A stretch of DNA of 56,293 nucleotides from a virus (lineage: Duplodnaviria; Caudoviricetes), in IMG/VR virus record IMGVR_UViG_3300035670_000258, positions 1-56,293 of that record; one strand, given 5' to 3'. A model generated the notes under the pieces. That model searched no databases and had not been told where the DNA came from. It saw nothing but the letters and a program-made list of their open reading frames with translations. A program made the position numbers and the translations under genes. Shown here piece after piece: positions 14,486 through 46,776 of this stretch (positions within the stretch are counted from its first letter, which is position 1; the number at the start of each line of letters is the position of its first letter).

Positions 14486-14491
14486 AAAGAT

Positions 14492-15701: not shown

Positions 15702-15744
15702 ATATGTTAGAATGCATATTTATCTATAAACCAATTCTGTTGTC

Positions 15745-17136
15745 ATGAAGATTTTTATAACTGAATCCCAATTCAAACGAATTATTGAGGCTGTTGATCT
15801 TAATGGCTCATTCACGAAATTAAAGGTGGGTGATATATTGGTATTGAGTATTTCCAGTGATAAGGGTGATTTTGACTATAAGTTCAAAGTCGTAAAAGAT
15901 ATGGGTGATAGTTGGATGCTATCCAATTTCAATGTTGGCAGTGTTAATACTGGTTTTGATTTCTATGTTAAGAAAAACGAGAATATTAACGATGCTAAGG
16001 TGGTTATGGTCAAGGTCAGTAAGAAGGATAAATCACGTAAGGAGTTAAATGCAACGATAAAAAATATTAAGTCTGCAAAAATCGGTGATGATGTTTTGGA
16101 TTTGGCTAAAATTGAGAAATCATATGATGCTGCTCTTATTAAAATTGAAAAGGCTGAGCCGAATATAGATAACGAATCGGCTCATAATAAGGCCGTGGCC
16201 GTGATTAAGAATCAATTCGGTGACATACCAGAGGTTGAGATTATCGATAATGCTGGTTATGGTAGGGTTAATAGAGGTGGAAAAAGCGGTAATCTTAACC
16301 CTGAAGATACTGAATTTACAGATGTTCCTAAAGATTTTACCATAGATACTATAAAATCTAAATTCGTAGAGGGTTCAGGTGTAAAACTAACATTGAAAAA
16401 TGGCGATGAGTTGGATTTTAATGTAATTTCAGGTAGTGGTGATGCTTTTATGATTGAATTGATTAAAACTAAGAGTGAAGAATATAATGAATATGAGGAA
16501 GTTCAGTTTAATGTAAAATTAAATCCAGATAATATAGAACTAAGTCCAGACGGAGAATATTTCAATATGAATATATCTATTGCAACAACAACGGCCACTA
16601 CTAGACCTGTTGTAATAAAATATATTGTGAATATTGATAAAACAAAAAAATTCGATGACGATGTTGAGTTAAGTAAAAAGAATTTGTTAAGAATTATCAT
16701 GGGTGACCCCGTACTTAAAAATGCTTTTGCCAATACACCTACGTTAATGGGTTTAATTAATATTGGTGATGTAAGGGGTATATCAAAAGCATACGACATA
16801 CTAAATAGAACTGGGTTCAACGTTGACGATTCAGATGACGACGGGGGTAAAAATCAGAATTTTGCTGATAAATTCTCAAGCGGTTACAAGGTTGAAATAT
16901 ACTTAGAGAATCGTGTAAAGTTCACGCAAGGTAATGCTATAGATGGCGGTAAAAAGGTAGTTGGTGTAACAAAAAGCGGTAGAAAAGTAACATTGACTGA
17001 TGAAGACAATAATACTTATGGTTTAGTGGAGGAATTACCAAATGATAAGTATGTAGTAAATGTTAAACGACCAAAAAATAATAATCGAGAAAAAACGACA
17101 ATTAAAGTTTTGGACTATAAATATAAAAGAGGTTAA
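15745..17136 (+). CDS. Lys/Asp-rich hypothetical protein, possible internal head protein
   Basis: 463 aa beginning MKIFITESQFKRIIE; own TATTTA motif at 15717. Confidence 0.6.
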   Translation: MKIFITESQFKRIIEAVDLNGSFTKLKVGDILVLSISSDKGDFDYKFKVVKDMGDSWMLSNFNVGSVNTGFDFYVKKNENINDAKVVMVKVSKKDKSRKELNATIKNIKSAKIGDDVLDLAKIEKSYDAALIKIEKAEPNIDNESAHNKAVAVIKNQFGDIPEVEIIDNAGYGRVNRGGKSGNLNPEDTEFTDVPKDFTIDTIKSKFVEGSGVKLTLKNGDELDFNVISGSGDAFMIELIKTKSEEYNEYEEVQFNVKLNPDNIELSPDGEYFNMNISIATTTATTRPVVIKYIVNIDKTKKFDDDVELSKKNLLRIIMGDPVLKNAFANTPTLMGLINIGDVRGISKAYDILNRTGFNVDDSDDDGGKNQNFADKFSSGYKVEIYLENRVKFTQGNAIDGGKKVVGVTKSGRKVTLTDEDNNTYGLVEELPNDKYVVNVKRPKNNNREKTTIKVLDYKYKRG

Positions 17137-17148
17137 GTTTAGTGGATA

Positions 17149-19644
17149 ATGCCAATTAATCAAAACCAATTAGACGCTATAAATAAAAGTTTGCTAGAAA
17201 TGGCAAACTTAAAGAATAAGATTTCCTCAGATTTTAAATCTTATCTAGACAGCGTTAAGCAGTTAGCTGTACTACAAGAGAACATAAAATACCTTGAAGA
17301 TAATATAGGTAAATTAACTCAAAAAACAGCAGATGCTCTAGCTGAAAAAAACAGGTTACAAACTAATTTTAATAATGCGGTAGCATCTGGTATACAACAA
17401 GATATAGATGCAGCTAAAGCCGCATTAAAAGCAGGTAAGGAGGCACATAAAGCAGCTAAATTAACTGAAAAGGATAACATAAACAAATTAAACTCATTAA
17501 GAGAGGAAAAAGATTTATTAGCTGGTATAGTCAAAGAAGCTAATTTAGCTAATTTAGCGTATGTTGAAACGGGTAAGATTTGGAACAAATTACCTGGCTT
17601 AGCTAAAAGTTTTTATCGAGAAATTAGAGATTTAGCTGCGGTTCAGATGTCCAAGGACATTAAACAAGCTGAACTCAGTATGGGTATATTGGGTAAACAG
17701 TCCCAATACTTCTCCAAAGGTATCTCTAAAGCATCAGAAAGTACCATACAATTAGGTTTCGGTATCAGCGATATTGCTAAATCGCAAGCCGATTATTCTG
17801 AAGAGATAGGTAGGTCATCCATGATGACTGAGCTTGGTATGCAAGCTATGGCTGAAATGGCCAAAGGTACAACGTTGGGTGTCGAAGGAGCTGCCTCTAT
17901 GGCGGCTGATATGGAGAGATTCGGGGTCAGCGTTGAGGGGTCAAGGGATTTGGTTCAAGAGACCGTTGACATAGCCGCTAAGATGGGTGTCAACTCTACC
18001 AAAGCTATAAAGGAGCTTACCAAGAACCTTAAAGTAGCTCAGACCTTCCATTTTAAGGGTGGCATCAGGGGAATGGCTGAAATGGCCTCATATGCGGCCA
18101 AAATGAAGGTTGATTTGAATGGATTAACTGGTATGGCTGATAAGGTCTTCAGACCAGAAGGGGCTGTTGAGATGTCGGCCAGATTGCAGACTATGGGCGG
18201 GGCGTTTGCTCGACTTGGGAATCCGTTTGAATTGATGTTCAAAGCAAGGAACGACTTTGCCGCGTTCACAAAGGATGTGGCCAGTGCGACAGCCGAATTG
18301 GCCCAGTTCAACGAATCATCTGGTGAATTTGAGATAAGTGGATTGCAGTTGGATAGATTAAGAGAGATTGCCACCATAACGGGAATCGGTGCCGATCAAT
18401 TATCAGAGATGGCAAAAGCTGGAGCTAAGTTCAATCGTATAAAATCATTAATACCAGGTACGTTTAACGAAGAGGACCAAGAATTGATATCTTCGTTGGC
18501 TGAAATGAAAGATGGCCAATATAAGGTACGGATTGACGGTCAGGACTTGATGTTAAACGAAATAAGCCAATTACAATTAGAGACGTTCAAAAAACAAAAG
18601 GGTGATTTGGCCGAAAGGGCTAAACAAGCTCAAACATTCGATGATGCGTTCACCAATCTGGTAAACCAGTTCAAATCGGTGTTATTACCATTTGTCGAAG
18701 AGCTTAATAAATACTTTGTACCAGCATTGATTGATTTTACCAAGAAGTTAATTGATGAAGGTTGGATAGATAAAATGAAAAGTATTGCAGCCGATGTCGG
18801 TAAACTGGTTGTCGGCATCGGAAAATTTGCGACGACAATTATTGACACTTTTGGGGTTGGTGGTACCGTGTTAGCAGCTGCATTAACAACGGCTGTGCTT
18901 AATGGCGCAAAATGGTATGCTCAAGGTGTACAGCTAGGGTTAGGCTTTAATACCGTAGCCAGAGCTGGTGGTGGTAACTCTGGTCCACTCGGTACTAATA
19001 TCGGGCCAGGTGCGAAATCGATTAAGGGTATCGGAGGTAATATTATGAGGGCTGGTGCAACTAAGTCAGTGATTGGTGGTGGTATATTGAGTGGTATAAT
19101 TTCTGGCGGTATGGAATATAGCGAACAAAAGGAAAAGGGTAAAAGTGAATCAAGCGCGATTGGTCGTGGGGCGTTAAAAGCTGCTGGATCTGGTATCGGT
19201 GCTTGGGGTGGGGCGGCAACAGGCGCGGCGTTAGGTGCAATGGCTGGTCCGTTAGGTGTACCTATCGGTGCGCTAATAGGCGGTGGATTAGGTGCCATTG
19301 GTGGTGGCTATCTAACCGATCTCGACACTTACGGTGTTGATGACGCAGTTGTCAAGTTCAATCCACAGGATAAAATTGTATCAATGAGTGATGGAATGGT
19401 TGCATCTACCAACAAAGGAAAAATTGATGACCTTGTTGGCGGTGGTGGCGCTATGAAATCACAGAAAATTGAGTTTGGAAAGCTAGAGATATCAGGTACT
19501 ATAAAGTTAGAAATGCCTGGCAATCTTGTGTCTTCAATTGACTTGGCCAATGAACCAGAATTTGTCAGAAAACTATCAACTTTAATATCACAACAGACAA
19601 GAATTAACTTATCTGGAGGTAAATTGTCGCCAAATCCATATTAA
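17149..19644 (+). CDS. Tape measure protein
   Basis: 831 aa, helical Ala/Lys-rich with a Gly-rich hydrophobic C-terminal region (GAWGGAATGAALGAMAGPLG); downstream of the chaperones. Confidence 0.85.
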   Translation: MPINQNQLDAINKSLLEMANLKNKISSDFKSYLDSVKQLAVLQENIKYLEDNIGKLTQKTADALAEKNRLQTNFNNAVASGIQQDIDAAKAALKAGKEAHKAAKLTEKDNINKLNSLREEKDLLAGIVKEANLANLAYVETGKIWNKLPGLAKSFYREIRDLAAVQMSKDIKQAELSMGILGKQSQYFSKGISKASESTIQLGFGISDIAKSQADYSEEIGRSSMMTELGMQAMAEMAKGTTLGVEGAASMAADMERFGVSVEGSRDLVQETVDIAAKMGVNSTKAIKELTKNLKVAQTFHFKGGIRGMAEMASYAAKMKVDLNGLTGMADKVFRPEGAVEMSARLQTMGGAFARLGNPFELMFKARNDFAAFTKDVASATAELAQFNESSGEFEISGLQLDRLREIATITGIGADQLSEMAKAGAKFNRIKSLIPGTFNEEDQELISSLAEMKDGQYKVRIDGQDLMLNEISQLQLETFKKQKGDLAERAKQAQTFDDAFTNLVNQFKSVLLPFVEELNKYFVPALIDFTKKLIDEGWIDKMKSIAADVGKLVVGIGKFATTIIDTFGVGGTVLAAALTTAVLNGAKWYAQGVQLGLGFNTVARAGGGNSGPLGTNIGPGAKSIKGIGGNIMRAGATKSVIGGGILSGIISGGMEYSEQKEKGKSESSAIGRGALKAAGSGIGAWGGAATGAALGAMAGPLGVPIGALIGGGLGAIGGGYLTDLDTYGVDDAVVKFNPQDKIVSMSDGMVASTNKGKIDDLVGGGGAMKSQKIEFGKLEISGTIKLEMPGNLVSSIDLANEPEFVRKLSTLISQQTRINLSGGKLSPNPY

Positions 19645-19680
19645 CTTTTAGCTTGTTGAAAAAAAAATGAGTCATCACTG

Positions 19681-19710
19681 TTGACTTTCGGTTTTTTATC
19701 AGTAACTTTG
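19681..19710 (+). promoter_or_regulatory. Host-type promoter
   Basis: TTGACT-N16-TAACTTTG (TAnnTTTG). Confidence 0.55.
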
Positions 19711-19720
19711 TGTTGTCTCA

Positions 19721-19805
19721 AGGGGGGATAAGGGGGGTCAGAGTATATATATATATTATAAATAATTATAATTAAATATATAATTAATATATTAATTAAT
19801 TAATA
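19721..19805. other. G6-N4-G6 tract followed by a 62-nt A/T-only stretch (candidate origin / DNA-unwinding element)
   Basis: AGGGGGGATAAGGGGGG at 19721-19737; no G or C from 19744 to 19805. Confidence 0.45.
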
Positions 19806-19812
19806 CATAACT

Positions 19813-19962
19813 ATGGATAAAAATATTTTTAATGGGGGTTCTATGCCTTCTATCGAAGAAACGGTAATGTTATTGGATATTTTGAAACAGATGAAGAATC
19901 AATATCCAAATGACCAAGAGTTCGGAAAATTTGTTAGGTCATTTTTAAATAACTTAAAATAA
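19813..19962 (+). CDS. Small hypothetical protein (49 aa)
   Basis: Manual translation MDKNIFNGGSMPSIEETVMLLDILKQMKNQYPNDQEFGKFVRSFLNNLK; below the track cutoff. Confidence 0.6.
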   Translation: MDKNIFNGGSMPSIEETVMLLDILKQMKNQYPNDQEFGKFVRSFLNNLK

Positions 19963-20011
19963 CTAAAAAATTTCATTCTGATATTTACAGCTATAGGATG
20001 TTAATTATCAG

Positions 20012-23000
20012 ATGGGTTTATTAGATTCAGAATTAATAAAAGAAACTAGGGATAGGTTATTAAGACGTAACATAGTCTCAAAAACCGTTGAAAATAACGG
20101 TTTATCAAGTCTATTGTACAGTATAGGTAAACCTGCCGCTATAGATGGGATACCACCAAACATAATTGACAGTGAGGATTTAGAGGATATAGGTTCAACT
20201 GTACGTGATTTCCTTTTAGTTAAGAACAAATACATTGCAACACCAATAGAATATGAAAGAATTTCAATTGACACCACATCTACTGATATCACATCCCAAT
20301 ATCCAGACTATCTGGAGCGCATGGCAGGTTTGGTGGGAGGCAATCCTTCAAGTAACGCTAGCAGCGTCATCAATGGTGTTTTAGGTGGATTAGTACCAAA
20401 ATACTCAGTAGGGGGTGGAAACCCTTTATTTGACGTAACATCGATACTAGGTGGTCGTAACCCAAGTAATGAGACCCCATTGGGAGTTATAGGCGCAAAC
20501 CAATTAGGTTTTGCAATACAAGTAAATTCAGCATTCAATCTTTATGAAGAGACTATTGGTACGATAAACACCAATCCGATAAGTTTATTGATGGGAAACC
20601 CTATAGTATTCCCTAATTATAAAATCACGGTAGCTAAAGGTACTGGTGGGGTTATATTAGATTATGCTGAGAGGATATTAGGTTTCAACACTCCTGTTAG
20701 TCTGTTGGATAGTTCCTCATCCATATTCTATACTGAATCTGGTGATATAACCAACGTTATCAGGGCTAATAATATGTTAGCCAATACAGGTAAGGGTCAA
20801 GTCAGTGCTTTATTCTGGTTATTAAAAGAGAATAAAAAGTACAGGCCAGCATATAGAGATTCTAGAGACCCTAATGGTGGTGTTAACGGCGATTTATATG
20901 CGTTCCAATATGGCCAGAACGATAGTGACAAAGGATATATCATAGATATGTTAAATGGGCCTGATAATAACCCCATTTCCAAGAGTAACTATGACTTACA
21001 GAATATGGTCAGAGATTCTGGATTCAGAAGTATCAATGATATACCGAAAATAGATGATGCCACATACGGTGATGTTGACGGGCAGTTATATAGTGCCCAA
21101 TCTGATTTTACATGGGAACCATATACACCATTACCATCAAACTTCAGTGAAAAATCAATATTGAGTAAAACAAAGCGATTGTTTGAATCAGGTAAACTTA
21201 ATTGGAACACAATTGACCCAGCGATTATACAGTCAAAAACCGAAATTAATAGTGCTGTATACGATAAAAATGGTCAAGGGTACATGCCCAATGGTAGTGG
21301 TAGTATAAAATTCAACGGTATCACACCTGAATCCGACCCGCAGAAGATGTTTTTCAGGACGTTTAACAAGGTTAAACAGTATGATAGGGTAAAACGGTTA
21401 CAGAAACATTCTGGAGTCAACCTAGACGCTGGTGTTAGCGTAAAAAAAGATGCCACGTTTTCAGTTTTGGATAATAACGGGTTTGTTAAAATCGCACCAT
21501 ATTCTGAAAATATAGTTCAACAATCATCATCGCAACTACCCTCAAGTGATGTTAAGAAATATATGTTCTCTATTGAAAACTTAGCTTGGCATGGTTATAC
21601 CAGTAATCTGATACCAGAGGAGGTAGGTAATGGTGACCCGATAAGCGGTCGTAAAGGTAGAATAATGTGGTTCCCTCCTTATGATTTATCATTCACCGAT
21701 AATACTTCTGTAAATTGGGAAAAGACTGATTTCATCGGTAGAGGTGAACCTATATACACATACAATAACACCACTAGAACTGGTAATCTACAGTTTAAGA
21801 TAATAATTGACCACCCGTCTTACGTTAATAGTTTGAAGGGTGAGAGTGATGATTTGATAAATTCACTGTTCACAGGTGGATTTGAGGTTGATAAGCGCGT
21901 AATAAACCGATTGACGGCAGATGAACAAGCGGCCACAGATTTGGCGTTTAACCAAGCAATAGATAAAGTTAATAATACACCTCAATCTGAGCCAAGTTCG
22001 TTTAATATATATTTTCCTTTTGAAACGACCACACTACAAGGTATAAACTATGCTACTGGTGGTTACGAAAGCGGTTTATTACCACCACCGTTCTCACCAC
22101 AGGAAGTGCCAAATCCGTCAAATCCTAATGGTAGCGGGTCTACATTTTCTTGGACTACCGATGGTGGTATCACATACATTACTGAAACTAATTTTGGTTT
22201 AAATTCTAATCTACCTGTCGCATTGAATGAATTGAACCAAAATAATTGGTACGACACATGTCCAGCTTGTAAAATAATAGTAACAAGCTATGGGCATTAT
22301 TTAGAAGATATAGAAGAATTAGATAAAAGAAATAGTACTGTAAGAACTTGGTTTAACTTCTTTTATGGTTGGGATAATGATACGATAAACATAGATAAAC
22401 GATATAGTTTAAAAATAGGCGGATTAGACTCAAACGCCACTACTTATAACCCTAATACTAGATATTCTAAAGAAAAAAGTTATACCACAATAGAATTTAA
22501 ATGGAACGCTGAATTAGCTGAAGAATTAAATCCTAATACCACACCCAAGATAGCTGACCCATTAGGTGACACAAATGTGAGTAGAACCATAAATGAACGT
22601 ATTAAGAGTCGATTCTATACTGAAGAAGGTTACTTCAGAAAACTTGAGCAAGAAGATAAGTTTGTTTATGATTCTTTGAGCCAAAAGATAGGTTTCTTCC
22701 ACCCATCATTCCACTCAATAACTCCAGAGGGTTTCAACTCAAGGCTCACATTCTTACAACAATGTACAAGGCAAGGTCCAACGGTCTATCAGAAAGGCGA
22801 TGAGAATGGTCCAACATTTGATTTGAATCGAGAATCTGACAGTTTGAGTCCAGATAACTTAGCTTTTGGTCAACCACCTGTATGTATACTCAGGTTGGGT
22901 GATTTCTATTATACCAAAATTATCATAGATTCGGTCAACTTCAGTTTTGACCCCTTGGTTTGGGATTTGAATCCAGAAGGCATAGGTGTGCAACCTATGA

Positions 23001-29989: not shown

Positions 29990-30021
29990 TGACTATTATA
30001 TAAAAACAGTATCTTTGCAAC

Positions 30022-30624
30022 ATGACTATAGGTTACATAATATCTGATGACCCTAGACCAATCGGTCAATGGTTCGAAGTCGTACCCTATACTGACTACA
30101 ATGAATCCAAACACAAACCTTGCTTATTCATTGGGATTGAGCGATTGTCAGAATTCTTGAACCAAAAAGTCGATGTCGTCAACAGAAGGTTAAGTGATGA
30201 TAGGTTGTATACGTTCACTAAATACGAATACAGAAAATATTACGAGGATGACCTATACGAATTCAAGAAACGATGCTATGAATCGTTGGTGAATGACATC
30301 TCATATTATTTTGTTGACCCACTATTACTATCTGAGGAAAAATACGCTGTCATGATGAAGAGATGTCTGGATAGAAAAACTAATATGACCATAATGACGT
30401 ATGGTGATATGTACTACGCATCGGTTGATAAGACAATATTAGGCTTCAATAAAAACTTTCAAGGATTCGTACCGACAATCGATTCTGATTTGGACACTTT
30501 AATCGCGGAAGCTAAACGAATATTCAGTGGTGAAGACTTAATACTACAATATTCAGAACATTTAGATATGTTAGGCGGTGAAATAAAATTTCTTCCGTAT
30601 ATTTGTTCTCTGAACGAAAATTGA
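30022..30624 (+). CDS. Hypothetical protein (200 aa)
   Basis: Clean ORF preceded by TATCTTTG (30010-30017). Confidence 0.7.
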   Translation: MTIGYIISDDPRPIGQWFEVVPYTDYNESKHKPCLFIGIERLSEFLNQKVDVVNRRLSDDRLYTFTKYEYRKYYEDDLYEFKKRCYESLVNDISYYFVDPLLLSEEKYAVMMKRCLDRKTNMTIMTYGDMYYASVDKTILGFNKNFQGFVPTIDSDLDTLIAEAKRIFSGEDLILQYSEHLDMLGGEIKFLPYICSLNEN

Positions 30625-37751: not shown

Positions 37752-39161
37752 ATGAAAGTAGAGACAGGAAAAGATTTTGGATATTTAGATAGTGAATTTC
37801 AATACCGATTATTAAAGCAGATATTAGTTGACCGTAAATTTGCGGAGACCATCATAAGTATACTCAACCCAAGCTACTTTACGGTCGAGAATCTAAGGTT
37901 TATCGCGGCTGAAATACGTAACTCGTATGAGACTTTGGGGTCCATCCCCGATATCGGTAGTCTTAAGATAAGAATCCACGAGAAGTTCAAGGGTGAAACC
38001 AACAAGTTCGCTCTGGAAATAAAATTGGACACCTTAAATAAGGTCAGTGAATCCGATGCTAACGATCCTGATTACATAAAAGACCTATCCTTAAAATTCT
38101 GTAAGCAACAGGAACTATCTAGAGCAATATCTGAAATCCAAACGATTTTAGATAGAGGATATGTCGATGATTACGATAAAGCCTCTGACATCATACGTCA
38201 AGCTTTGGAGGTTGGCCAGAGTACCGAGGATGATACTTCAGTATTCGATGATATTGAATCGGTATTGGCGAAGGACTTCAGAGAACCGATTCCAACAGGT
38301 ATACATCTGTTAGATCAGTACATGAACGGTGGCTTGGCCAAAGGTGAGTTAGGTATAATTCTGGCCGCTTTCGGTGTCGGCAAAACAACTGCGGTTACTA
38401 AAATAGCTAATACAGCTTTTAACGAAGGTAAGACCGTGATTCAAATCTTCTTTGAAGACCAACCCAACGTGATTAAACGTAAACATATATCCTGTTGGAC
38501 TGGTATTGAACTGAATGAACTTGAGAATCATATTGATGAGGTTAAAGAAGTTGTTAAACAGAGAGAAGCCAGTGGGGGTACCTTGATACTTAAGAAGTTT
38601 CAGAGTGATACTACCACCATACCTAAAATCAAGAAGTATCTACAGAAGAAGATTTCTCAAGGAATCAAGCCTGATATCATACTACTGGATTATATCGATT
38701 GTGTCCAACCTTCAAAACGCTTCGATGATAATAACGTAGCTGAGGGTAACATTATGCGAGAATTCGAATCTATGTTATACGAGCTTGATATCGCTGGATG
38801 GACCTGCGTACAAGGTAATCGTAGCAGTATAAAATCTGAGATTGTTGAGTCTGACCAAATTGGTGGGTCTATTAAGAAAGGTCAAATCGGTCACTTCATA
38901 ATGTCCATAGCCAAATCACTAGAACAGAAGGAGAACGGCAGAGCGAACGTGGCGATTCTGAAGTCCAGATTCGGAAAAGACGGTATAACATTCATGGACG
39001 TATTGTTTGATAATAAGACAATACAGATTGATATTTCAGATACCGCTTCGGCTCTTACTTTCACTCAGAAAAAACAAGTGGATGTTAAGAATGAACAAGA
39101 CTACGTTAACCAAGTTCTAAGTAGAGCAAGACAACGCATTAATGATATTGATGAAATTTAA
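37752..39161 (+). CDS. Replicative DnaB/gp41-like helicase
   Basis: IPTGIHLLD..GGLAKGELG, Walker A AAFGVGKT, LLDYID, QGNRS, KSRFG. Confidence 0.93.
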   Translation: MKVETGKDFGYLDSEFQYRLLKQILVDRKFAETIISILNPSYFTVENLRFIAAEIRNSYETLGSIPDIGSLKIRIHEKFKGETNKFALEIKLDTLNKVSESDANDPDYIKDLSLKFCKQQELSRAISEIQTILDRGYVDDYDKASDIIRQALEVGQSTEDDTSVFDDIESVLAKDFREPIPTGIHLLDQYMNGGLAKGELGIILAAFGVGKTTAVTKIANTAFNEGKTVIQIFFEDQPNVIKRKHISCWTGIELNELENHIDEVKEVVKQREASGGTLILKKFQSDTTTIPKIKKYLQKKISQGIKPDIILLDYIDCVQPSKRFDDNNVAEGNIMREFESMLYELDIAGWTCVQGNRSSIKSEIVESDQIGGSIKKGQIGHFIMSIAKSLEQKENGRANVAILKSRFGKDGITFMDVLFDNKTIQIDISDTASALTFTQKKQVDVKNEQDYVNQVLSRARQRINDIDEI

Positions 39162-39185
39162 TAATTAACTTAAACAAAAACTAAA

Positions 39186-40139
39186 ATGTATTTAAATAGT
39201 AACGATTTAAAAAAACGGTATTCAATATTCCCAGTTACACACGGTGACCTGTGGGAAAAATATAAGAACGCGGAATCACAGACTTGGGTGGCCGAGGAAG
39301 TTGATTTGAGTAAGGATAAGTTCGATGAATTGAAAGATAATGAAAAGACTTATCTTAAAAACATCTTAGCTTTCTTTGCGATTTCTGACGGGTTGGTCAT
39401 AGATAATCTAGCAACAAACTTCCTAAATGAAGTTGAAATCCTTGAAGCGCAATATTTCTACGGACATCAGACTTTTATCGAACAAGTCCACGCTAACGGT
39501 TATTCATTGTTGATTGAAACCTATATCAAAGACCTTGAAGAACGCGAGGCCCTGTTCAACTCAATGGAAACCAACCCAGCAGTAAATAAGAAAGCCTCTT
39601 GGGCTGAAAATTGGATTAGCCATCCGTCATTCGCCCATAGATTGGTCGCATTCGCCTGTGTTGAGGGAATATCTTTCGCTAGTGTGTTCGCAGGTGTATT
39701 CTGGTATCGTAGTCGGAATAAAATGACGGGTTTGGCTGCGATGAATGAATTGATTTTAAGAGATGAGACGACACATTATGAGTTTGCTTTGAATCTCTAT
39801 AAGAACTACTTGAAGAATGATTACAAACTTTCCTTAGATGAATTGCGGAATATTATTCTGACTTGTTATGACGTAGAAAAAACATTTGTTGAAAGCAGCA
39901 TGCCAGAAGGTCTCCAAGGTATGACCAAAGATGACATGGTAAAATACGTGCAATATGTTACAGATATAGTACTGACTGATTTTGGGTGTAAAGCAGAATT
40001 CAATGTAGGTAACCCTCTTGAATTCATGGCCAGAATCGGATTGTCAGCTAAGAATAATTTCTTTGAACAGCGAGTCGGTGAATACTCTAGAGTTGAAATA
40101 CCTTCTACAATGGAAGGTGTATTTGATGACGAATTTTAA
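39186..40139 (+). CDS. nrdB: Ribonucleotide reductase class Ia beta subunit
   Basis: FFAISDG, EQVHANGY (radical Tyr), VEGISF, RDETTH, NFFEQRVGEY. Confidence 0.97.
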   Translation: MYLNSNDLKKRYSIFPVTHGDLWEKYKNAESQTWVAEEVDLSKDKFDELKDNEKTYLKNILAFFAISDGLVIDNLATNFLNEVEILEAQYFYGHQTFIEQVHANGYSLLIETYIKDLEEREALFNSMETNPAVNKKASWAENWISHPSFAHRLVAFACVEGISFASVFAGVFWYRSRNKMTGLAAMNELILRDETTHYEFALNLYKNYLKNDYKLSLDELRNIILTCYDVEKTFVESSMPEGLQGMTKDDMVKYVQYVTDIVLTDFGCKAEFNVGNPLEFMARIGLSAKNNFFEQRVGEYSRVEIPSTMEGVFDDEF

Positions 40140-40157: not shown

Positions 40158-42311
40158 ATGAAAATAGTTAAACGAGACAAGACAACGCAAGCGTTCGCCC
40201 CCAATAAAATTCTATCTAGGATTAAAACTCAATCTAAAGGGCTTAGCGTCAATCCAGACCTTCTTTTTCAAGAAGTTATACCTTTGATAAGTGATAATAT
40301 CACTACAACTGAAATCGATGAGATTATCGCATTCAAAGCTGCGGATAAAGTAATTAAACACCCAGACTATTCATTGCTTGGTGGTCGAATATTACTTAGC
40401 AGACAATCAAAATTAATAGGTAAACCGCTACAACCAGTGGATTTAACCTACGACTTCTTTGCTGCTACTACATTCTTGACAAAATATTCTAAAAGAGACA
40501 TTAAAAACGCTCCGTTGGAATTACCGTCATGCATGTACGAGCGGGTAGCTAATTTCTTAAGTGATAATGAGTCGGATAAAAAGGAACTATTAGAAGAACT
40601 CTTAAGTAAGAGGGTTAATTTTGCCACACCTACGTATACTAACGCAGGTGTTGATAAAAGGGGTGGTATGATTAGTTGTAACTTGGTACACTTGGAATCT
40701 GACACGATTGAAGGTATCGAAGAAACTTTAACTAAAATCGCATACGCTTCAAAAGAAGGTGCAGGTATCGGACTGCTAATCGACCCATTGAGAAGTAAGG
40801 AGAGTTTTGTCGGTTCCTTTAATGGTAACGCTGGAGGTGTGGTCAGGTTCGCTGATATGGTTCAAGGTAAAATGCGGTTCTATAAGCAAGGTTCCAGATC
40901 AGGTAGCTGTGCGTTATATTTGTCAGTATGGCATAGAGATATTATCGACTTCCTTGAATTAACATCACCTGTAGGTGACGAGCAGCTGAGAACTAGAGAC
41001 CTGTTCACCGCAGTGGTGATAAACGACCTTTTTATGCGTAAATTGGAAGCTAACGAAGATTGGCACACATTCTGCCCCAATGACATAATTAAAGCTGGTC
41101 TAAGGCCCTTATATGAACTCTACGGGGATGAATTTGAAGCTGAATACGCTAAGGCGGTTGAGCTTGGTTTGGGTAAACCCATTTCAGCCAAGAGAATTTT
41201 CGACTCTATCATCAAATCACAGGTTGAAAGTGGAAAACCTTATGTGATGTATAAAGATAATGCAAATAAACGAAATATGCAAGATAACATCGGTGTTATC
41301 AAAATGAGTAATTTGTGTATAGAGGTGTATCAAGCTAACCGACCTAAGTATTCAGCCCAATGTACATTGGCGTCAATTAATCTCAGTGAGCATGACAACT
41401 TGGATAGTATTGCGAAAAGTACCAAAGTATTGGTGAAAGCCCTCAATCAAGTGATTGATAAGAATAAGTGGTCTGACGATTGGAGCGAAGCGGCTGGGTT
41501 GGACCAGAGAGCTATAGCGATTGGCGTGGCAGGTATGGCAGACTTCTTCGCTAAGAAGAAAATCTCATATGAAAGTGATTCGGCTAAAGCGTGGAATGCC
41601 GACATTTTCGAAACCATGTATAAATCAGCTTTAACAGAATCTATGTCAATCGCTGAGGCTAAAGGTAAAACGTATCCAGCTTGGGAAGGTAGTAGGTACG
41701 CTAAAGGTGAAACATACATTGAAGGGTGGTCGCCCAAGCCAAATGGTGAACCGATACCGATGTATAATAGCTTGCTCCTGGCATCAATGCCGACTGCCAG
41801 CTCTGCTATATTACTTGGGTCGTTCGAATCATTTGAACCTGTAACAGCCAATCTGTTCACCAGACGTGTCGGTCAAGGTGAGTTCTTGATTGTGAATAAA
41901 TATCTTGTCAATGAACTGTTGGAGTTGGATATGTGGAATGACAATATGATAAATAAGATTATCGGGAATAAAGGTAGTGTTCAGAATATTGTTGAAATAC
42001 CCGAAGATATCAGGTATCGGTACAAAGACGTTTGGGAAATTTCTCAAAAGACATTACTTGACCTCTCAATAATCAGAAATAAGTACGTAGACCAATCACA
42101 ATCGCTTAACGTGTATCATGCAGACGCTAAATATTCAAAGATTGCTAGCGCCCTCATGTACGCTTGGAAGGGTGGACTTAAGACTGGTGTTTATTACACT
42201 AGAACGAAAAGTAAGTTGGATGCTAACAGTAAGTTGGCCTCAATGAATACTGAGGTGTTGCCAGAGAAACCGAAAGATAGTCCATTTGAATGTTTCGGGT
42301 GTAGCGCATGA
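40158..42311 (+). CDS. nrdA: Ribonucleotide reductase class Ia alpha subunit
   Basis: ATP-cone-like start KIVKRD, ATPTYTNAG, SCNL, SNLCIE, MPTASS, DQSQS, KTGVYY, C-terminal CFGCSA. Confidence 0.97.
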   Translation: MKIVKRDKTTQAFAPNKILSRIKTQSKGLSVNPDLLFQEVIPLISDNITTTEIDEIIAFKAADKVIKHPDYSLLGGRILLSRQSKLIGKPLQPVDLTYDFFAATTFLTKYSKRDIKNAPLELPSCMYERVANFLSDNESDKKELLEELLSKRVNFATPTYTNAGVDKRGGMISCNLVHLESDTIEGIEETLTKIAYASKEGAGIGLLIDPLRSKESFVGSFNGNAGGVVRFADMVQGKMRFYKQGSRSGSCALYLSVWHRDIIDFLELTSPVGDEQLRTRDLFTAVVINDLFMRKLEANEDWHTFCPNDIIKAGLRPLYELYGDEFEAEYAKAVELGLGKPISAKRIFDSIIKSQVESGKPYVMYKDNANKRNMQDNIGVIKMSNLCIEVYQANRPKYSAQCTLASINLSEHDNLDSIAKSTKVLVKALNQVIDKNKWSDDWSEAAGLDQRAIAIGVAGMADFFAKKKISYESDSAKAWNADIFETMYKSALTESMSIAEAKGKTYPAWEGSRYAKGETYIEGWSPKPNGEPIPMYNSLLLASMPTASSAILLGSFESFEPVTANLFTRRVGQGEFLIVNKYLVNELLELDMWNDNMINKIIGNKGSVQNIVEIPEDIRYRYKDVWEISQKTLLDLSIIRNKYVDQSQSLNVYHADAKYSKIASALMYAWKGGLKTGVYYTRTKSKLDANSKLASMNTEVLPEKPKDSPFECFGCSA

Positions 42312-42344
42312 CAATTATGATATAAATAAAAAAAAACTTAAATT

Positions 42345-42551
42345 ATGGAAACTAAAACTAATTTTATTGAAAGTATTAACGATTTACCCTTAGCAGAATA
42401 TCGTCGAAATGTATTGTCTTTCATGAAAGGAGAGTATGATACGTTATCAACCCCTAATAAAATACAATCTATTGGTACTCAGACGATAATCGTTACTCGT
42501 GAGACCAAAGAAGCAATAAAGGGATATTTTTTAAGACCATTTAGAAACTGA
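42345..42551 (+). CDS. Small hypothetical protein (68 aa), accessory
   Basis: A-rich leader; the stop codon is immediately followed by TTATAAC, the start of the attC-like hairpin. Confidence 0.65.
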   Translation: METKTNFIESINDLPLAEYRRNVLSFMKGEYDTLSTPNKIQSIGTQTIIVTRETKEAIKGYFLRPFRN

Positions 42552-42552
42552 T

Positions 42553-42646
42553 TATAACGGTTGAGTGTATGAGTAGTGTGGCTTTACACATACTTTCAAC
42601 TTACAGATAAACTTTATTAGCCACATTACTTATACACTTTGTTATA
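42553..42646. repeat. attC-like imperfect palindrome
   Basis: TATAAC...GTTATA ends. Inner arms AGTGTATGAGTAGTGTGGCT (42564-42583) and AGCCACATTACTTATACACT (42619-42638) pair 18/20 with two G.T wobbles. Confidence 0.7.
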
Positions 42647-42851
42647 GGTATGTAAAATTTACGATTATGAAAAAATTATGGAGCAAATTCTACAATAGTA
42701 GAGTAGGACAATATGTGATTTACGGTATAACTTATTTAGTATGGTGGAAACTTGCTGGATTTGAATTTGCGGTGATAATATGCTTAACAACAATTCTTGG
42801 AGAGATACATTTTCAAGACATGAAACGTAAGTAAATTTTATTACCTATAAC
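42641..42851 (+). mobile_element. Putative single-gene cassette bounded by inverted repeats
   Basis: GTTATAGGTA-TG-TAAAATTTAC (42641-42662) is the reverse complement, bar the central 1-2 nt, of GTAAATTTTA-T-TACCTATAAC (42831-42851). Confidence 0.6.
42667..42834 (+). CDS. Small membrane protein (55 aa) inside the cassette
   Basis: Manual translation MKKLWSKFYNSRVGQYVIYGITYLVWWKLAGFEFAVIICLTTILGEIHFQDMKRK; two hydrophobic segments; exactly fills the space between the repeats. Confidence 0.7.
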   Translation: MKKLWSKFYNSRVGQYVIYGITYLVWWKLAGFEFAVIICLTTILGEIHFQDMKRK

Positions 42852-42970
42852 AAGTATATGTACGCATCGCTCTGAAAGCCCAGTAAAATCAAGACTTTCA
42901 GAATATAACCTGTACAACTAGCATTTCTTCATGTACAGAGAGATGATAACATAATCAGATACCTTTAATT

Positions 42971-43531
42971 ATGAATTTTTTTAACTATACCTTAACTGAA
43001 GCCGATAAAGCTTATTGTATTAAGCATGCTCAAGGCATGGCTGACGGCTTCAGTACGTATAGTTTTAAGAACGATACCAAACAGTCGTTGGATGTATATT
43101 ATATAGGAAAGGTAGGTGAGTTTGCGGTGTACAAGTATTTAAGGTCATTGGAAAAAGATGGTTTGCTTAAAATAGTACATGTACCATTCAGAGAAAAGTA
43201 CGATAAGTTGAATTTCAATGACGACTTCATCATTGAATGTAACGGAATAAGGCAGCAGATTGAAGTCAGGACCAAAGGTAGAAATGTTGAACCTAAACTT
43301 GAATACGAATGTTGTAGCGATTGTATTAAACCGCATTTTCTTTATATCTTTGTATCGTTTAATCGTCAGACCGATACCGCAAGCGTGTTAGGGGTGGCCA
43401 ATTGGGAAAACTTCAGCAAACACGCAGTTGTCACTAAGAAAGGTTCTGATAACGATAATTTCACAAATAAGGTTAATGAATTCAATATCAAAATACAATA
43501 TTTAACACCGCTTAATGAATATTTCGCATAA
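42971..43531 (+). CDS. Putative PD-(D/E)XK restriction-endonuclease-like protein
   Basis: GKVGEFAVYKYL...NDDFII...QIEVRTK fits E...D...ExK/R spacing. Confidence 0.55.
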   Translation: MNFFNYTLTEADKAYCIKHAQGMADGFSTYSFKNDTKQSLDVYYIGKVGEFAVYKYLRSLEKDGLLKIVHVPFREKYDKLNFNDDFIIECNGIRQQIEVRTKGRNVEPKLEYECCSDCIKPHFLYIFVSFNRQTDTASVLGVANWENFSKHAVVTKKGSDNDNFTNKVNEFNIKIQYLTPLNEYFA

Positions 43532-43590: not shown

Positions 43591-43702
43591 AAATCTTTTT
43601 ATTAAAAAATAGACAAAGTAAGATTTATTTCTTAATATTGGTTGTTATAAGTATGTATTATTTAGTAGAATGCCGATATGAAGATATAAAAAAAAAGAAA
43701 AA

Positions 43703-44398
43703 ATGCGAAGCAAGGGAAATTTAATACTTAATTGTGGTGAGATAGCACAATCAATCATTTCATTCATTCGGGATACAAGAAACAAATACAATATACCGAA
43801 AAATAAACTTGTGTTGTATATTGATATGTGGGGCAAGGAGGTTGAGATAATGGATATTCAACTAATGAGATGGGAAGGGATAATATCAAAATACAATATG
43901 GGTAATTTGGAAAAAGTGGAATATTCATTGTATGAATTATTTGAAAATGATATTTATTTTGAGTCGACCAGTATAGATGGATATAACATTTATTTGGCGT
44001 TACCGACAATACAAAAGGAAGGACAAATTAATGACTTTGCCAATGAAATAATTAGATTGGAAGACCAAAAAATAAAATATCAAAATAAATTATCAGATGA
44101 AAATTTTACATTAAAAGCCCCAAAAGACATTGTGGCTGCGGAACGAAAGAAATTAACTGATGCAGAACGCAGAAGTCAAAACTTAAAAGCAAATATGCTG
44201 ATGTTTACTTGCGGGAAAGAATATTACGATTTACTGATAAAACTTGGCGATAATAAAAAGATTAATTGGAACATACAATACCAAAGAGAGTTGAATTCGC
44301 AGAATGAACAATACGAACAGAAATGGTTTAACGAAGTTTATAACCGACAAATAGAAACTTATGAAATTAAGGCGTTACATTCTAAAATTTGTGCGTAG
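43703..44398 (+). CDS. Protein containing only the C-terminal (partial anticodon-binding + coiled-coil arm) region of valyl-tRNA synthetase
   Basis: IISFIRDTRNKYNIP and NEIIRLEDQKIKYQNKLSDENFTLKAPKDIVAAERKKLTDAE match the ValRS arm pattern (E..RL...KLsNenF..kAP..VV..Er.KL). No HIGH or KMSKS motif. Confidence 0.75.
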   Translation: MRSKGNLILNCGEIAQSIISFIRDTRNKYNIPKNKLVLYIDMWGKEVEIMDIQLMRWEGIISKYNMGNLEKVEYSLYELFENDIYFESTSIDGYNIYLALPTIQKEGQINDFANEIIRLEDQKIKYQNKLSDENFTLKAPKDIVAAERKKLTDAERRSQNLKANMLMFTCGKEYYDLLIKLGDNKKINWNIQYQRELNSQNEQYEQKWFNEVYNRQIETYEIKALHSKICA

Positions 44399-44488: not shown

Positions 44489-44513
44489 AAAACCCGTTAA
44501 TTCGGGTTTTTTT
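44489..44513 (+). terminator. Intrinsic terminator closing the accessory island
   Basis: AAAACCCG-TTAATT-CGGGTTTTTTT; preceded by the palindrome ATTTAGTTT-TG-AAACTAAAT (44461-44480). Confidence 0.8.
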
Positions 44514-44564: not shown

Positions 44565-44951
44565 ATGGCACAAGGTAGATACATAAACATAAGGTACCCG
44601 TTTAGGGACAGTGTGAAGGGATTTCTATTCGAGTTGAATGAAACTGATTCATCTGCGATTAGAAGTGATTTGTTGCACCTTATATTAACCACAAGAGGTC
44701 AACGGTTCTATTTACCTGATTTCGGAACTGACCTGATGAAGTATATTTTCGAACCTAATGACAGTAAAACGCTATCTGATATAAAGATAGATATAAATGA
44801 GACCGTTAAGAAATACATACCCAATCTGATAATAAACGATGTCATTGTAGAACGGGATGAAGAGTTTGAGCATAAAGCAACAATAAAAATAGATTACACC
44901 GTAACCGAGGATGTGTTCGAGGAAAGGGATGTTATTATAATCAATATCTAA
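44565..44951 (+). CDS. Baseplate wedge protein gp25-like
   Basis: DLLHLILTTRGQRFYLPDFGTDLMKYIFEP. Confidence 0.93.
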   Translation: MAQGRYINIRYPFRDSVKGFLFELNETDSSAIRSDLLHLILTTRGQRFYLPDFGTDLMKYIFEPNDSKTLSDIKIDINETVKKYIPNLIINDVIVERDEEFEHKATIKIDYTVTEDVFEERDVIIINI

Positions 44952-44955
44952 GAAA

Positions 44956-46776
44956 ATGCCACAGAAAATACCATATTTTGCCAGAAACTTCGCTGACCTA
45001 AGAATTGAGCTTATCAATTATATACGTCAATATTATCCTTCTATTCTACAAGACTTTAACGATGCATCGGTGGGTGCGATGCTCATAGACCTGAATGCTG
45101 GTGTGGGTGACGTACTATCATTTCATACCGACAGGATGTTCCAAGAGACGCAGATTAATTTCGCCCAAGAAAGGTCCAGTGTATTAAGTATGGCTAGGAC
45201 ATTCGGTTTAAAGATACCTGGCAAAAGACCCAGCGTCACCATAGCCGACTTCAGCGTGATTGTACCAGTATTCGGTGATACCTTCGACATATCATATGCA
45301 CCTCTCATTAGACGAGGTGCGCAAGTATCTGGCGCAGGTAAGGTATTTGAAACGGTCAATGATATCGACTTCTCATCACCATTCAGTATTAACGGAATAC
45401 CAAACAGACTTATAATTCCAAATCTGGATTCATCTGGAAACTTAGTCAATTATACATTGACAAAAAGAGAACTGATTATAAATGGTATTACCAAGATATT
45501 CAAAAGGTCGGTCACAGCAGGTGATGTAAGACCATTCTTTGAAGTTATATTACCAGATGATGATGTTCTATCAATAAATTCTATTATAACGTTAGAGGGT
45601 CTTAATTACACTCAGACGCCCAGCATTGATCAATTCTTGAACCCAGCTAACAGATGGTATGAGATGGACGCTTTGGCCGATGATTTGGTCTTTGTAGAAG
45701 ATCAGTTGGCACCTAGCACTCAATCAGGTATAAAGACAGGTAAATGGGTGAGGGTAGACCAGAGATTCATAAGAGAATATACTGACTTAGGTTTCACTAA
45801 AATCATATTTGGTGGCGGTTCACAAGATGTGGGTTCATTATGCGATTTCGGGGTAGATAAGACCTTGGTTAATCGAATAGGTGATTTCATCAATAACTTG
45901 AGCCTAGGTAAAACTCTGACACCTAATACCACTATGTTCATTAGTTATCGGGTAGGTGGTGGAGCAGCTGCTAATATTGGTCCGAACGTACTGAATACCG
46001 TTAACACCGTGAACATGACCGTGAACGGTAATAACCAGAATATAAACAATAGTGTCAGAAACTCATTGACTGTTAATAATCCGCTACCAGCAATAGGCGG
46101 TCGTGATGAACCATCGGTTGAGGAGGTTAGGAATATGGTGAGATATAATTTCTCATCTCAGAATAGGGCTGTTACGATAAAGGATTATCAAGTCAGAATT
46201 GGAATGATGCCAGGTGAGTTTGGTGTACCGTTCCGAGTAGGCGTACTTGAAAACCAGAATAAAATCAGCGCTTACATCCTGTCTCTCGACTCATCAGGAA
46301 AACTATTGAACCAATCGACATCAACATTAAAAGAGAATATTGCGACCTATTTATCGAATTATCGGATGATAAACGATTACGTTGAGGTTCGTGACGGTAA
46401 AGTGATAAATATCGCAGTTGAATGCGGCATATTCATAGATAAACAATACCCTCAATCACAGATCATATCACAGGTTATTCAGAATATTCAGAGCTACATG
46501 GATATCAACAACTTTGAAATGGGTGAAACGATATACCTAAGTCAGTTGATTGAGAATATAAACAATGTAGGTGGTGTGCTGAACGTTATTGATTTGAAAT
46601 TATTCAATAAGGTCGGAGGTAATTATTCGTTGAATGAAATATCACAACCGCTCATTGACGCTGAGACCAGAGAGATAAATGTATCTCAAAACTATGCACT
46701 CATAGGCGATCCCGTGAGCATGTTCGAAATCAAATTTGGGTCTATAGACGTTAAAGTTAGAGTTAGGAACAATTAA
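44956..46776 (+). CDS. Baseplate wedge protein gp6/J-like
   Basis: YFARNFADLRIELINY, AQERSSVLSMARTFG, YRVGGG, GGRDEPSVEEVR, SQNRAVTIKDY. Confidence 0.92.
   Translation: MPQKIPYFARNFADLRIELINYIRQYYPSILQDFNDASVGAMLIDLNAGVGDVLSFHTDRMFQETQINFAQERSSVLSMARTFGLKIPGKRPSVTIADFSVIVPVFGDTFDISYAPLIRRGAQVSGAGKVFETVNDIDFSSPFSINGIPNRLIIPNLDSSGNLVNYTLTKRELIINGITKIFKRSVTAGDVRPFFEVILPDDDVLSINSIITLEGLNYTQTPSIDQFLNPANRWYEMDALADDLVFVEDQLAPSTQSGIKTGKWVRVDQRFIREYTDLGFTKIIFGGGSQDVGSLCDFGVDKTLVNRIGDFINNLSLGKTLTPNTTMFISYRVGGGAAANIGPNVLNTVNTVNMTVNGNNQNINNSVRNSLTVNNPLPAIGGRDEPSVEEVRNMVRYNFSSQNRAVTIKDYQVRIGMMPGEFGVPFRVGVLENQNKISAYILSLDSSGKLLNQSTSTLKENIATYLSNYRMINDYVEVRDGKVINIAVECGIFIDKQYPQSQIISQVIQNIQSYMDINNFEMGETIYLSQLIENINNVGGVLNVIDLKLFNKVGGNYSLNEISQPLIDAETREINVSQNYALIGDPVSMFEIKFGSIDVKVRVRNN

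Follow-up and report, generated by a model that had tools for sequence, protein, structure and literature searches.

A probable stray cassette of an integron-like platform behind nrdA in a large phage genome fragment

Integrons are known as bacterial devices, and the turnover of accessory genes in phages is usually ascribed to homologous or illegitimate recombination. In T4-type phages, promoter early stem-loops (PeSLs) are reportedly mobile regulatory cassettes (Comeau et al. 2014). The present study concerns an attC-like hairpin followed by a small gene behind nrdA in a 56,293-nt stretch of viral DNA (Duplodnaviria; Caudoviricetes; IMG/VR record IMGVR_UViG_3300035670_000258, positions 1 to 56,293). 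This whole stretch, a single contig with a CheckV completeness of 16%, is referred to below as the window. Among the closest described systems are integron cassette arrays and clusters of attC sites lacking integron integrases (CALINs). In the available part of their article, Qi, Rajabal, Ghaly, Tetu and Gillings (2023; PMC9892861) describe 17 CALINs in phages, some of them virulent, each with at least two predicted attC sites, note DNA methyltransferase cassettes among them, report recombination with attI1 under IntI1 for five of the six phage attC sites tested, and place complete integrons in temperate phages only.

Among phage-specific systems the nearest analogue is the PeSL of T4-type phages, a module that combines a strong sigma-70-like promoter with an effective terminator and recombines through homology (Arbiol et al. 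2010, PMC2839356, available part). Integron integrases fall within an ‘integron-like’ subgroup of the simple recombinases, within which conservation of the IntI insertion is incomplete (Smyshlyaev et al. 2021, PMC8138268, available part). In the literature searched, no account was found of hairpin cassette arrays that end at an Xer-type recombinase encoded by the phage.

The initial annotation of the window, made from its letters alone, had read the locus as integron-like cassette architecture in a lytic phage, with capture taking place there. This interpretation is partly supported. The best explanation of the hairpin and the small gene behind nrdA is that together they are probably a stray piece of an integron-like cassette platform, comprising one cassette and the terminal junction; the architecture agrees with similar units found elsewhere, with the complementarity of unit ends, with breakpoints at the cores and with a recombinase encoded beside the arrays, whereas activity at this locus finds no such backing.

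The window hairpin and its family

All of the features described in the initial annotation were recovered when the coordinates were re-read. The hairpin (42553-42646, plus strand) is an outer palindrome of 94 nt that opens with TATAAC (42553-42558) and closes with GTTATA (42641-42646). Its inner arms (42564-42583 and 42619-42638) are 20 nt long and 90% complementary, and the spacers between arms and ends are asymmetric, GGTTG (5 nt) on one side and TT (2 nt) on the other. The cores are TAAC at 42555-42558 and GTTA at 42641-42644; a 3-nt bulge after TAAC precedes a 21-bp stem with two G-T (G-U) pairs and a 35-nt loop. Folded as RNA, the plus strand of the hairpin reaches -37.9 kcal/mol (z -6.1), a value equalled by none of 200 shuffles, and when the record is scanned in overlapping stretches of 110 nt, about 3,700 in all, the hairpin ranks among the best 40. 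The minus strand reaches just -24.9 kcal/mol (z -2.9), because two of the hairpin pairs are G-U.

The hairpin is followed by the D module TAGGTATGTAAAATTTAC (42645-42662, plus strand), which forms the 5' end of the ORF (open reading frame) unit and occurs once in the window. The cassette ORF itself, o55 (42667-42834, plus strand), encodes 55 aa with a hydrophobic middle stretch and belongs to no family. The 3' end of the cassette consists of the U module GTAAATTTTATTACCTA and a second TAAC core (42848-42851), together spanning 42831-42851 on the plus strand. D is complementary to U, and the two pair in the minimum-free-energy fold of 42540-42975; the repeats at the unit ends (42639-42659 and 42833-42853, 21 nt) are complementary at 81% without gaps, a figure that improves with one indel. 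Taken alone, this complementarity is unremarkable, being one of 14 comparable inverted pairs in the window, and it is significant only at the level of the family. The U-TAAC leads directly, at 42848, into an attI-like junction motif, TAAC-NNN-TATAT-R-T (here TAACAAGTATATGTA, 42848-42862, plus strand), of which this is the sole match in the window; no recombinase gene follows, and the next ORF, o186, begins 123 nt later. The unit 42555-42851, hairpin and o55 together, is one complete cassette of a common hairpin type.

The initial annotation had proposed a search for TAAC-hairpin-GTTA units between small ORFs elsewhere, and many such units exist in IMG/VR records and arrays. A degenerate 18-nt arm pattern matched 49 IMG/VR stretches, most of them with both arms at equal spacing. 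Seven of these (L085, L089, L091, L093, L115, L118 and L127) are by appearance unrelated matches. Including the window there are 31 full distinct copies (30 other contexts), in which similarity extends exactly from TAAC to GTTAT and the flanks are unrelated; the D module TAGGTATGTAAAATTTAC follows 19 of the 31. No copy of the window's hairpin type was found in GenBank phages. A covariance model built from the near-identical copies, R1, scores the window hairpin at 124.7 bits and matches nothing else in the window. Applied to five whole viral records, it gives 16, 19, 7, 2 and 2 clustered matches, the 19 copies in G002 all lying on a single strand between 82 and 113 kb, and in 69 kb of array DNA it gives 59 matches, all in gene orientation except for reverse-strand echoes. 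The fetched arrays consist of small co-oriented ORFs (35-290 aa) interspersed with hairpins, which always stand in gene orientation.

Diverged copies retain nTAACG(G/T)TTG on the 5' side and (C/T)TGTTA(T/G) on the 3' side, while their stems vary freely yet stay paired. A detector of our own that is blind to stem sequence (it asks for TAAC..GTTA and, at fixed offsets, no fewer than 15 paired positions of 16) also recovers the window hairpin; among the fetched loci, 1.34 Mb in total, it found 201 elements, against none in shuffled sequence. Its strand-symmetric form yielded 342 distinct elements, the stems of which start with 232 different 12-mers. The stem pairs of these 342 elements comprise 4674 Watson-Crick, 563 G-T and 129 A-C pairs, and in 513 of the G-T pairs the G stands on the 5' arm; this excess indicates that one strand is built for folding and the other is not. 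The family thus has the attributes by which attC sites are recognised, namely an imperfect inverted repeat with AAC/GTT cores, conserved structure and variable sequence, including a compensatory core variant, TGAC/GTCA, in L003. No clear extrahelical bases of the attC kind were seen; instead there are the 3-nt bulge on the 5' side and the G-T bias. Among the near-identical hairpins, inspection by eye shows that 5' GGT(T/C)GA co-varies with TC(A/G)AC in the loop, and the loop (CATACTTTCAAC) offers a second pairing partner for the first 13 nt of the 5' arm, which suggests an alternative, mutually exclusive pairing.

The complementarity of unit ends, described in the initial annotation for one unit, holds across the family. 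Between consecutive hairpins, the 14 nt after GTTA and the 14 nt before the next TAAC are complementary at a mean of 8.16 of 14 positions, with 42% of the pairs reaching at least 10 (n=123). The corresponding values are 4.79 and 1% for the two 14-nt flanks of the same hairpin (n=199), and 4.70 and 1.2% for random flank pairs (n=4828). Therefore, complementary unit ends are a general property of the family. The complementarity of D and U includes a recurrent G-T pair (..AGT.. vs ..ATT..).

Recombinase, junction and moving units

Genes matching PF00589 lie just past the arrays in three of the viral records (G002, 115994-116461; G001, 77653-78120; G003, 131292-131720, here on the array's strand), one of which, G001, also carries a phage terminase. 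The array-adjacent recombinases have 268-289 aa and consist of PF13495 and PF00589. Their best NCBIfam matches are the XerA ‘tyrosine recombinase/integron integrase’ model with 176-206 bits (cut-off 220) and the integron-integrase model TIGR02249 with 151-171 bits (cut-off 265), the latter in two stretches that omit profile positions ~178-238, the IntI-specific region. The nearest solved structures are those of archaeal XerA (4a8e, 5hxy), followed by IntI4 (2a3v). Since the recombinase is without the IntI-specific insert, the system is not a canonical integron; this additional domain of integron integrases is absent from the array-adjacent enzymes, and the window itself has no tyrosine recombinase.

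A search begun independently, with the recombinase as its starting point, yielded 80 loci. In these the sequence-blind detector placed 177 hairpins on the recombinase strand upstream of the gene and 2 downstream of it, but none on the opposite strand, and 48 of the 65 loci with at least 1 kb of upstream sequence have a hairpin within 3 kb. In 47 of 74 loci the U-TAAC of the last unit runs into the strict TAAC-NNN-TATAT-R-T motif, which is separated from the recombinase match downstream by 55-101 nt; outside this position, 1.1 Mb of sequence contains the motif four times on the plus and four times on the minus strand. This conserved junction has the position expected of an attI site and may function as one. 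Up to ~30 hairpin sites are present within 35 kb of a phage genome, and the order along the folding strand is hairpin array, junction, and recombinase gene in sense. A classical integron shows the same order when its bottom strand is followed.

Bacteroidota genomes and DPANN archaea in GTDB also encode relatives of the recombinase. Close relatives are frequent in the latter (Woesearchaeota, Nanoarchaeota and Pacearchaeota; L229, L253, L259-L261, L265, L272-L277 and others), and in the DPANN loci the detector found no TAAC..GTTA hairpin of this geometry. The recombinase is ~35% identical to the annotated integrases of the cultured flavobacterial phages Freya, Ingeline and Leef; the detector found no canonical-geometry hairpin in Freya or Ingeline and a single short one in Leef, and R1 gave one weak Freya match of 30.3 bits. 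Across the Polaribacter phages Freya_1 to Freya_10 (MT732463-MT732472), the start of the related ‘integrase’ moves from record position 65 to 4162 as genome length rises from 43,978 to 48,920 nt, and small ORFs and a GTTAGCAAC...GTTGCTAAC pair lie upstream of it. These isolates may differ in the accessory genes beside the recombinase, although the records are circular and start positions alone prove nothing. No serine recombinase was found in the records searched, including the window.

The mobility of the units was approached by all-against-all blastn of 97 hairpin-bearing loci, with high-scoring segment pairs of at least 250 nt and at least 80% identity between different contigs. Internal left ends fall at TAAC -2..0 in 23 of 90 cases and internal right ends at TAAC +4 in 8 of 87, and most of the remaining ends are in ordinary syntenic DNA at a distance from hairpins. 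Loci L133 and L191 have a 315-nt unit in common at 100% identity, and L132 and L208 one of 331 nt at 92%; in both pairs the flanks are unrelated up to TAAC and again after the next TAACG. The unit of L132 and L208 has the hairpin, D and U types of the window around a different ORF. Around the window's own unit, the contig graphs from four metagenome runs fork twice, immediately ahead of GTTA (42640) and at the end of TAAC (42851/42852). Different sequences follow each fork, with three continuations after 42851/42852. In these comparisons the cassettes present themselves as discrete, apparently mobile units with boundaries in the core, from TAAC to TAAC, at 90-100% identity. The breakpoints at G|TT expected in the initial annotation are borne out in that core breakpoints do occur elsewhere, but the best-resolved ones lie at the TAAC 5' of the hairpin; what moved in those cases (L133/L191 and L132/L208) was the hairpin with its ORF and not, as had been supposed, the ORF alone. 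Contig joints from 42663/42673 to 42830, with short sides of 23-30 nt, were discarded and probably represent other cassettes that share D/U-type modules.

Those units bear on the possibility of a selfish palindromic element, such as a miniature inverted-repeat transposable element, a palindrome-associated transposable element (PATE) or a repetitive extragenic palindrome (REP), placed at TAAC-like targets by a transposase, e.g. an IS200/IS605-type Y1 enzyme or a REP-associated tyrosine transposase (RAYT). The hairpin body is indeed separable from both flanks, being nearly unchanged in 31 contexts and before 10 downstream modules, and truncated half-copies occur in L094, L096, L099, L113 and L123. 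However, such an element predicts neither complementarity between the downstream flank of one hairpin and the upstream flank of its successor nor the movement of hairpin and ORF as one unit. The Y1 HUH transposase (PF01797) by which IS200/IS605 PATE and REP-RAYT systems are recognised is absent from the window record (G000) and from G001, G002, G003 and G006, as are serine recombinases from the records searched, and this explanation is very improbable.

The cargo was surveyed by comparing a random 145 of the 186 distinct cassette-first ORFs with Pfam. Six of the 145 encode N6/N4 DNA methylases, one a C5 methylase, one a Dam-type methylase and one an Acb2/Tad1-type domain, and the majority match no Pfam family.

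In the phage arrays the folding strand is the coding (mRNA) strand, as would be expected of an element acting purely at the RNA level, that is, a structure processing, stabilising or terminating mRNA, with a D/U panhandle per cistron serving, for example, RNase III-type cleavage. The much greater stability that the G-U pairs confer on plus-strand RNA and the pairing of D with U in the predicted fold agree with this idea. Against it stands L228 (Flaviramulus sp., 11259-20072), where a run of 13 consecutive ORFs occupies a single strand, the hairpins fold on the opposite one and the TAAC junction adjoins the recombinase gene; this ties the folding strand to the geometry of recombination and not to that of transcription. 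The idea would also leave unexplained the identical units with TAAC breakpoints in unrelated flanks and the conserved junction beside a recombinase gene. A terminator scan found a sole terminator-like site, at 44489-44510, and neither a terminator nor a U-tract at the hairpin. Rfam 15 gave nothing at gathering score for 42000-43300, the best of twelve weak matches listed being MIR844 (28.5 bits vs 70), and no phage RNase III gene was found in five records. A purely RNA-level element is thus improbable. The array of L228 and that of L238 (Flavobacterium difficile, 11441-20513) are located in bacterial chromosomes and contain 125-145-nt hairpins of the same geometry beside a related recombinase; in both, the ORFs lie opposite the folding strand, and the recombinase gene is upstream and points in the same direction as the ORFs.

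The nrdA-gp25 locus of the window phage

The interval between nrdA (40158-42311) and the gp25-like gene (44565-44951) measures at most 250 nt in 64 of the 70 related loci that have both genes, 0.85-1.8 kb in the other six and 2.25 kb in the window, in agreement with the hotspot behind nrdA proposed in the initial annotation. Comparison with relatives and contigs delimits a block, 42309-42965, that is absent from the closest relatives and contains o68, the hairpin, o55 and the junction motif. The first of these, o68 (42345-42551, plus strand, 68 aa, no family), lies upstream of the hairpin and is itself not preceded by one. In L001 and L003-L006, whose NrdA is 91-98% identical, the ATG of o186 lies 2 nt after the nrdA stop; contigs of runs X2 and X3, two runs that belong to the study of the likely source, join 42308 to 42966, omitting 657 nt, and one contig of run X7 keeps o68 and is missing 42537-42964. 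The block is flanked by an 8-nt direct repeat, AATTATGA, with a left copy at 42313-42320 and a right copy at 42967-42974 (both plus strand), the latter overlapping the o186 start codon (42971); because of the repeat, the alignment with relatives places the junction ambiguously.

The hotspot of L003 contains three hairpins and the same junction motif (at 4098), but downstream of o186; L017 and L054 have two hairpins each. By the definition of a CALIN as at least two attC sites close together without intI, L003 would qualify and the window, with one hairpin, does not. No match to PF00589 or PF00239 exists across the 56,293 nt of the window, the record being 16% complete, which agrees with the earlier remark that no integrase was in view. 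A recombinase encoded elsewhere had been anticipated. It is present beside arrays in other phages and in Bacteroidota genomes, but not in the four large relatives G006-G009 (NrdA ~80% identical, 36-86% complete), where PF00589 genes were absent and R1, at a threshold of E 0.001, matched nothing, a result obtained with a model biased to the window's hairpin type. The NrdA of the window has no match in the array-rich records G001 and G002, and that of G003 is 40% identical. The window phage lineage is probably without a recombinase of its own. Since there is one hairpin, and a recombinase is found neither in the window nor in the large relatives, the window cassette is a horizontally acquired orphan and not an active capture system. 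Cassette capture at this locus, as originally proposed, is not upheld; the breakpoints of the indel are the stop of nrdA and the start of o186 and not the cores, and there is no sign of capture activity. Its arrival looks illegitimate rather than site-specific, to judge from these breakpoints.

The same indel is among the points that weigh against an origin in an integron-like platform. The ends of the 657-bp indel carry the 8-nt direct repeat and not GTTA or TAAC, and some breakpoints lie at GTTA and are unexplained by a single crossover at TAAC. One hairpin type, ~85-95% identical by eye, precedes 10 different D modules and 22 unrelated ORF clusters, and homology between hairpin-bearing loci often ends ~25 nt after GTTA (14 right ends), roughly where the downstream ORFs start (21-24 nt after GTTA). 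A single TAAC crossover would keep hairpin and D linked; therefore something else must operate, the candidates being exchange at both arms, homologous recombination between frames, and recurrent cassette genesis. On the side of the enzyme, 25 residues stand in place of the 68 of IntI4 (2a3v), and the IntI insert is called essential for integron function in the available part of PMC8138268. No hairpin lies within 3 kb in 17 of the 65 recombinase loci with at least 1 kb upstream, and the strict junction motif is absent from 27 of 74 loci, many of which have near-variants. The recombinases form one family in which, by single linkage, a hairpin lies within 3 kb upstream in 7 of 14 clusters at 70% identity and in 2 of 3 at 50% identity, and inherited synteny may inflate the association between recombinase and hairpin. 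The bias of R1 limits the negative result for G006-G009, the phage hairpins may have an added or alternative RNA role, and the evidence for movement is all comparative, no recombination having been directly observed.

Several of these points are those expected of a PeSL-like regulatory cassette, in which the hairpin and its flanks would be conserved intergenic modules of a hyperplastic region, co-infection would allow the ORFs to be shuffled by homologous or microhomology recombination between such modules, and the recombinase would be no more than a syntenic neighbour. The use of an 8-nt direct repeat in the window, the near-identical hairpin, D and U frames around unrelated ORFs with homology stopping soon after GTTA, and the kinship of the recombinases, whose adjacency may be inherited, all fit; T4-type PeSLs mediate such shuffling and form mini-circles according to the available part of PMC2839356. 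It is nevertheless an unlikely explanation. Most hairpins are too diverged for homologous recombination (232 stem starts in 342 elements), and they have kept cores and pairing; the unit ends complement each other instead of resembling their neighbours; and the array stops exactly at the conserved TAAC junction before the recombinase, with hairpins distributed 177 : 2 : 0 around it. Nor does the window have the regulatory signals of such a module, since a promoter scan that does not cover Bacteroidota-type promoters found 10 sigma-70-like sites vs 13.9 expected, and no terminator-like site occurs at the hairpin.

The genes around the block were named from Pfam and PHROGs. Upstream of nrdA are a dnaB-like helicase gene (37752-39161) and nrdB (39186-40139), and downstream of the block follow o186 (42971-43531), o231 (43703-44398), the gp25-like gene and a baseplate J-like gene (44956-46776). 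o186 matches nothing in Pfam or PHROGs; by eye it has a D...E-x-K-like pattern that recalls PD-(D/E)XK nucleases, and its neighbour on the 5' side is nrdA in the closest relatives but the junction motif in the window. In all fetched loci up to L299, tblastn gave no match to o68, o55 or o231; a tRNA scan found none, and GenBank phages include no near relative of the 4.2-kb region, the single matching record covering 2% of it. The labels ‘lytic’ and ‘Bacteroidota’ given to the window phage are plausible, and a Flavobacteriia-like Bacteroidota host is a plausible suggestion from the nearest cultured relatives.

At 43644-43663, 40 nt upstream of o231, a solitary GTTA with a D-like module, TAAGTATGTATTATTT, has no hairpin ahead of it and is perhaps left over from another cassette junction. 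Three copies of an 18-nt direct repeat, AATATCAAAATACAATAT, two of them exact (43484-43501, 43882-43899 and 44076-44093), span the end of o186 and the interior of o231. The terminator-like site at 44489-44510 is a canonical intrinsic terminator just 5' of gp25 that is conserved in L003 and closes the variable region. The gene block has other insertion hotspots, with ~1.7 kb between nrdB and nrdA in L012/L013 (4306 to 6001) and, in L044, L023 and L067, 0.8-1.8 kb separating the baseplate J-like gene from gp25. The match to the dnaB-like helicase is continuous in the window and split at residue 212 by ~1.09 kb in L001, L002, L013, L043, L044, L055, L061 and L065, which may represent an intein, an intron or an inserted homing-endonuclease gene. 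Elsewhere in the window, the minus-strand ORF at 9596-11812 (738 aa) includes five to seven tandem units of 186-204 nt, 60-72% identical, at 10463-11780; the protein has repeated domains, because the tandem units sit inside one long ORF.

The proposed platform and known systems

The arrays of the platform to which the window cassette is attributed are carried by large metagenome phages and by some Bacteroidota genomes, and consist of small, apparently promoterless genes in co-oriented order. Each unit runs from TAAC through an imperfect hairpin, GTTA, a D module of ~20 nt, the ORF and a U module of ~15-20 nt complementary to D to the next TAAC, and the strand marked by G-T wobbles would fold as single-stranded DNA into an attC-like hairpin. 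A tyrosine recombinase related to Xer and IntI, encoded just beyond the attI-like TAAC-NNN-TATATRT junction at the array end, would cut and exchange at the TAAC core. Units would leave as circles, U and D closing into an outer stem, and then re-insert. In the window, the unit 42555-42851 and the junction at 42848 would have entered the nrdA-gp25 hotspot of a recombinase-less jumbo phage within the 657-bp block, the breakpoints of which point to microhomology-mediated and not site-specific recombination. The cassette genes are probably expressed by read-through from nrdAB, and further movement of the cassette would need a recombinase supplied in trans by a co-infecting phage or by the host.

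We lean somewhat, and with reserve, towards a wider proposal, according to which large phages of Bacteroidota-type hosts, and some of the hosts, run a platform of their own, characterised by an Xer-type recombinase without the IntI insert, a TAAC-TATATRT junction, and long attC-like hairpins with a G-T-marked folding strand. Many of the ‘integrase-less’ attC clusters of virulent phages would then be parts of this platform and not orphans of bacterial integrons, and it would trade methyltransferases and anti-defence genes between unrelated phages and seed recombinase-less ones. If this is true, a phage-encoded cassette platform would constitute a third route for the exchange of small genes between unrelated phages, and the reading of attC clusters (CALINs) in virulent phages would change. 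An Xer-like enzyme without the IntI insert may then handle hairpin sites, which bears on the evolution of integron integrases. The occurrence of one hairpin frame on 22 unrelated ORF clusters offers a handle on the long-open question of cassette origin. The message of the window itself is smaller, namely an acquired orphan rather than an active capture system.

The arrays resemble integrons and CALINs in their imperfect hairpins with AAC/GTT cores, conserved in structure and variable in sequence, in their co-oriented order with mostly single small ORFs per unit, and in their mutually complementary unit ends. As in integrons, a junction site adjoins a tyrosine recombinase gene, and array, junction and recombinase in sense follow one another along the folding strand. 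Unlike integron integrases, the present recombinase is without the IntI insert and scores below both integron-integrase cut-offs, and, unlike integron cassettes, those of the phages have their ORFs on the folding strand, directed towards the recombinase gene. Compared with attC sites, the complementary outer ends, at 14-20 nt, are far longer than the R box, and no extrahelical bases are evident, the hairpins having instead the 3-nt bulge and the position-biased G-T wobbles.

The cargo of the present arrays resembles that of phage CALINs in containing DNA methyltransferases, as noted in the available part of PMC9892861. The window differs in having one hairpin, vs at least two predicted attC sites in each published CALIN, and the arrays differ in their own recombinase, a phage-encoded enzyme of this kind beside the arrays of virulent phages not being described in that part of the article. 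A direct point of contact is the cultured, virulent Polaribacter phage P12002L (L300), one of the CALIN phages in the available part of PMC9892861; in this phage, hairpins of the present kind adjoin DNA methyltransferase and Mom-like genes, and the likeness is by phage and not by attC coordinates. The hairpins of this phage lie on the minus strand at 38035-38090, 38874-38948, 39117-39257 and 30003-30068.

PeSLs are similar in that repeated stem-loop modules flank small ORFan genes in the hyperplastic regions of large lytic phages, their proposed effects there being modular shuffling and the formation of mini-circles (PMC2839356, available part). The present hairpin differs from them in having no promoter/terminator signature, the combination by which a PeSL is defined, and in its diverse stems with conserved 4-nt cores, complementary unit ends and recombinase at the array end, PeSLs having no dedicated recombinase. 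With the Xer proteins (XerA, XerC/D) the recombinase shares its restriction to the core-binding and catalytic domains (PF13495 and PF00589); Xer, however, resolves chromosome dimers at a single dif site, whereas the present gene ends multi-hairpin arrays. In the sedentary chromosomal integrons of the Vibrio type, one near-identical attC type is attached to many unrelated ORFs. The 31 near-identical hairpins that precede 22 unrelated ORF clusters are alike in this respect, although the hairpin type described here is spread across unrelated phage genomes and not along one host chromosome.

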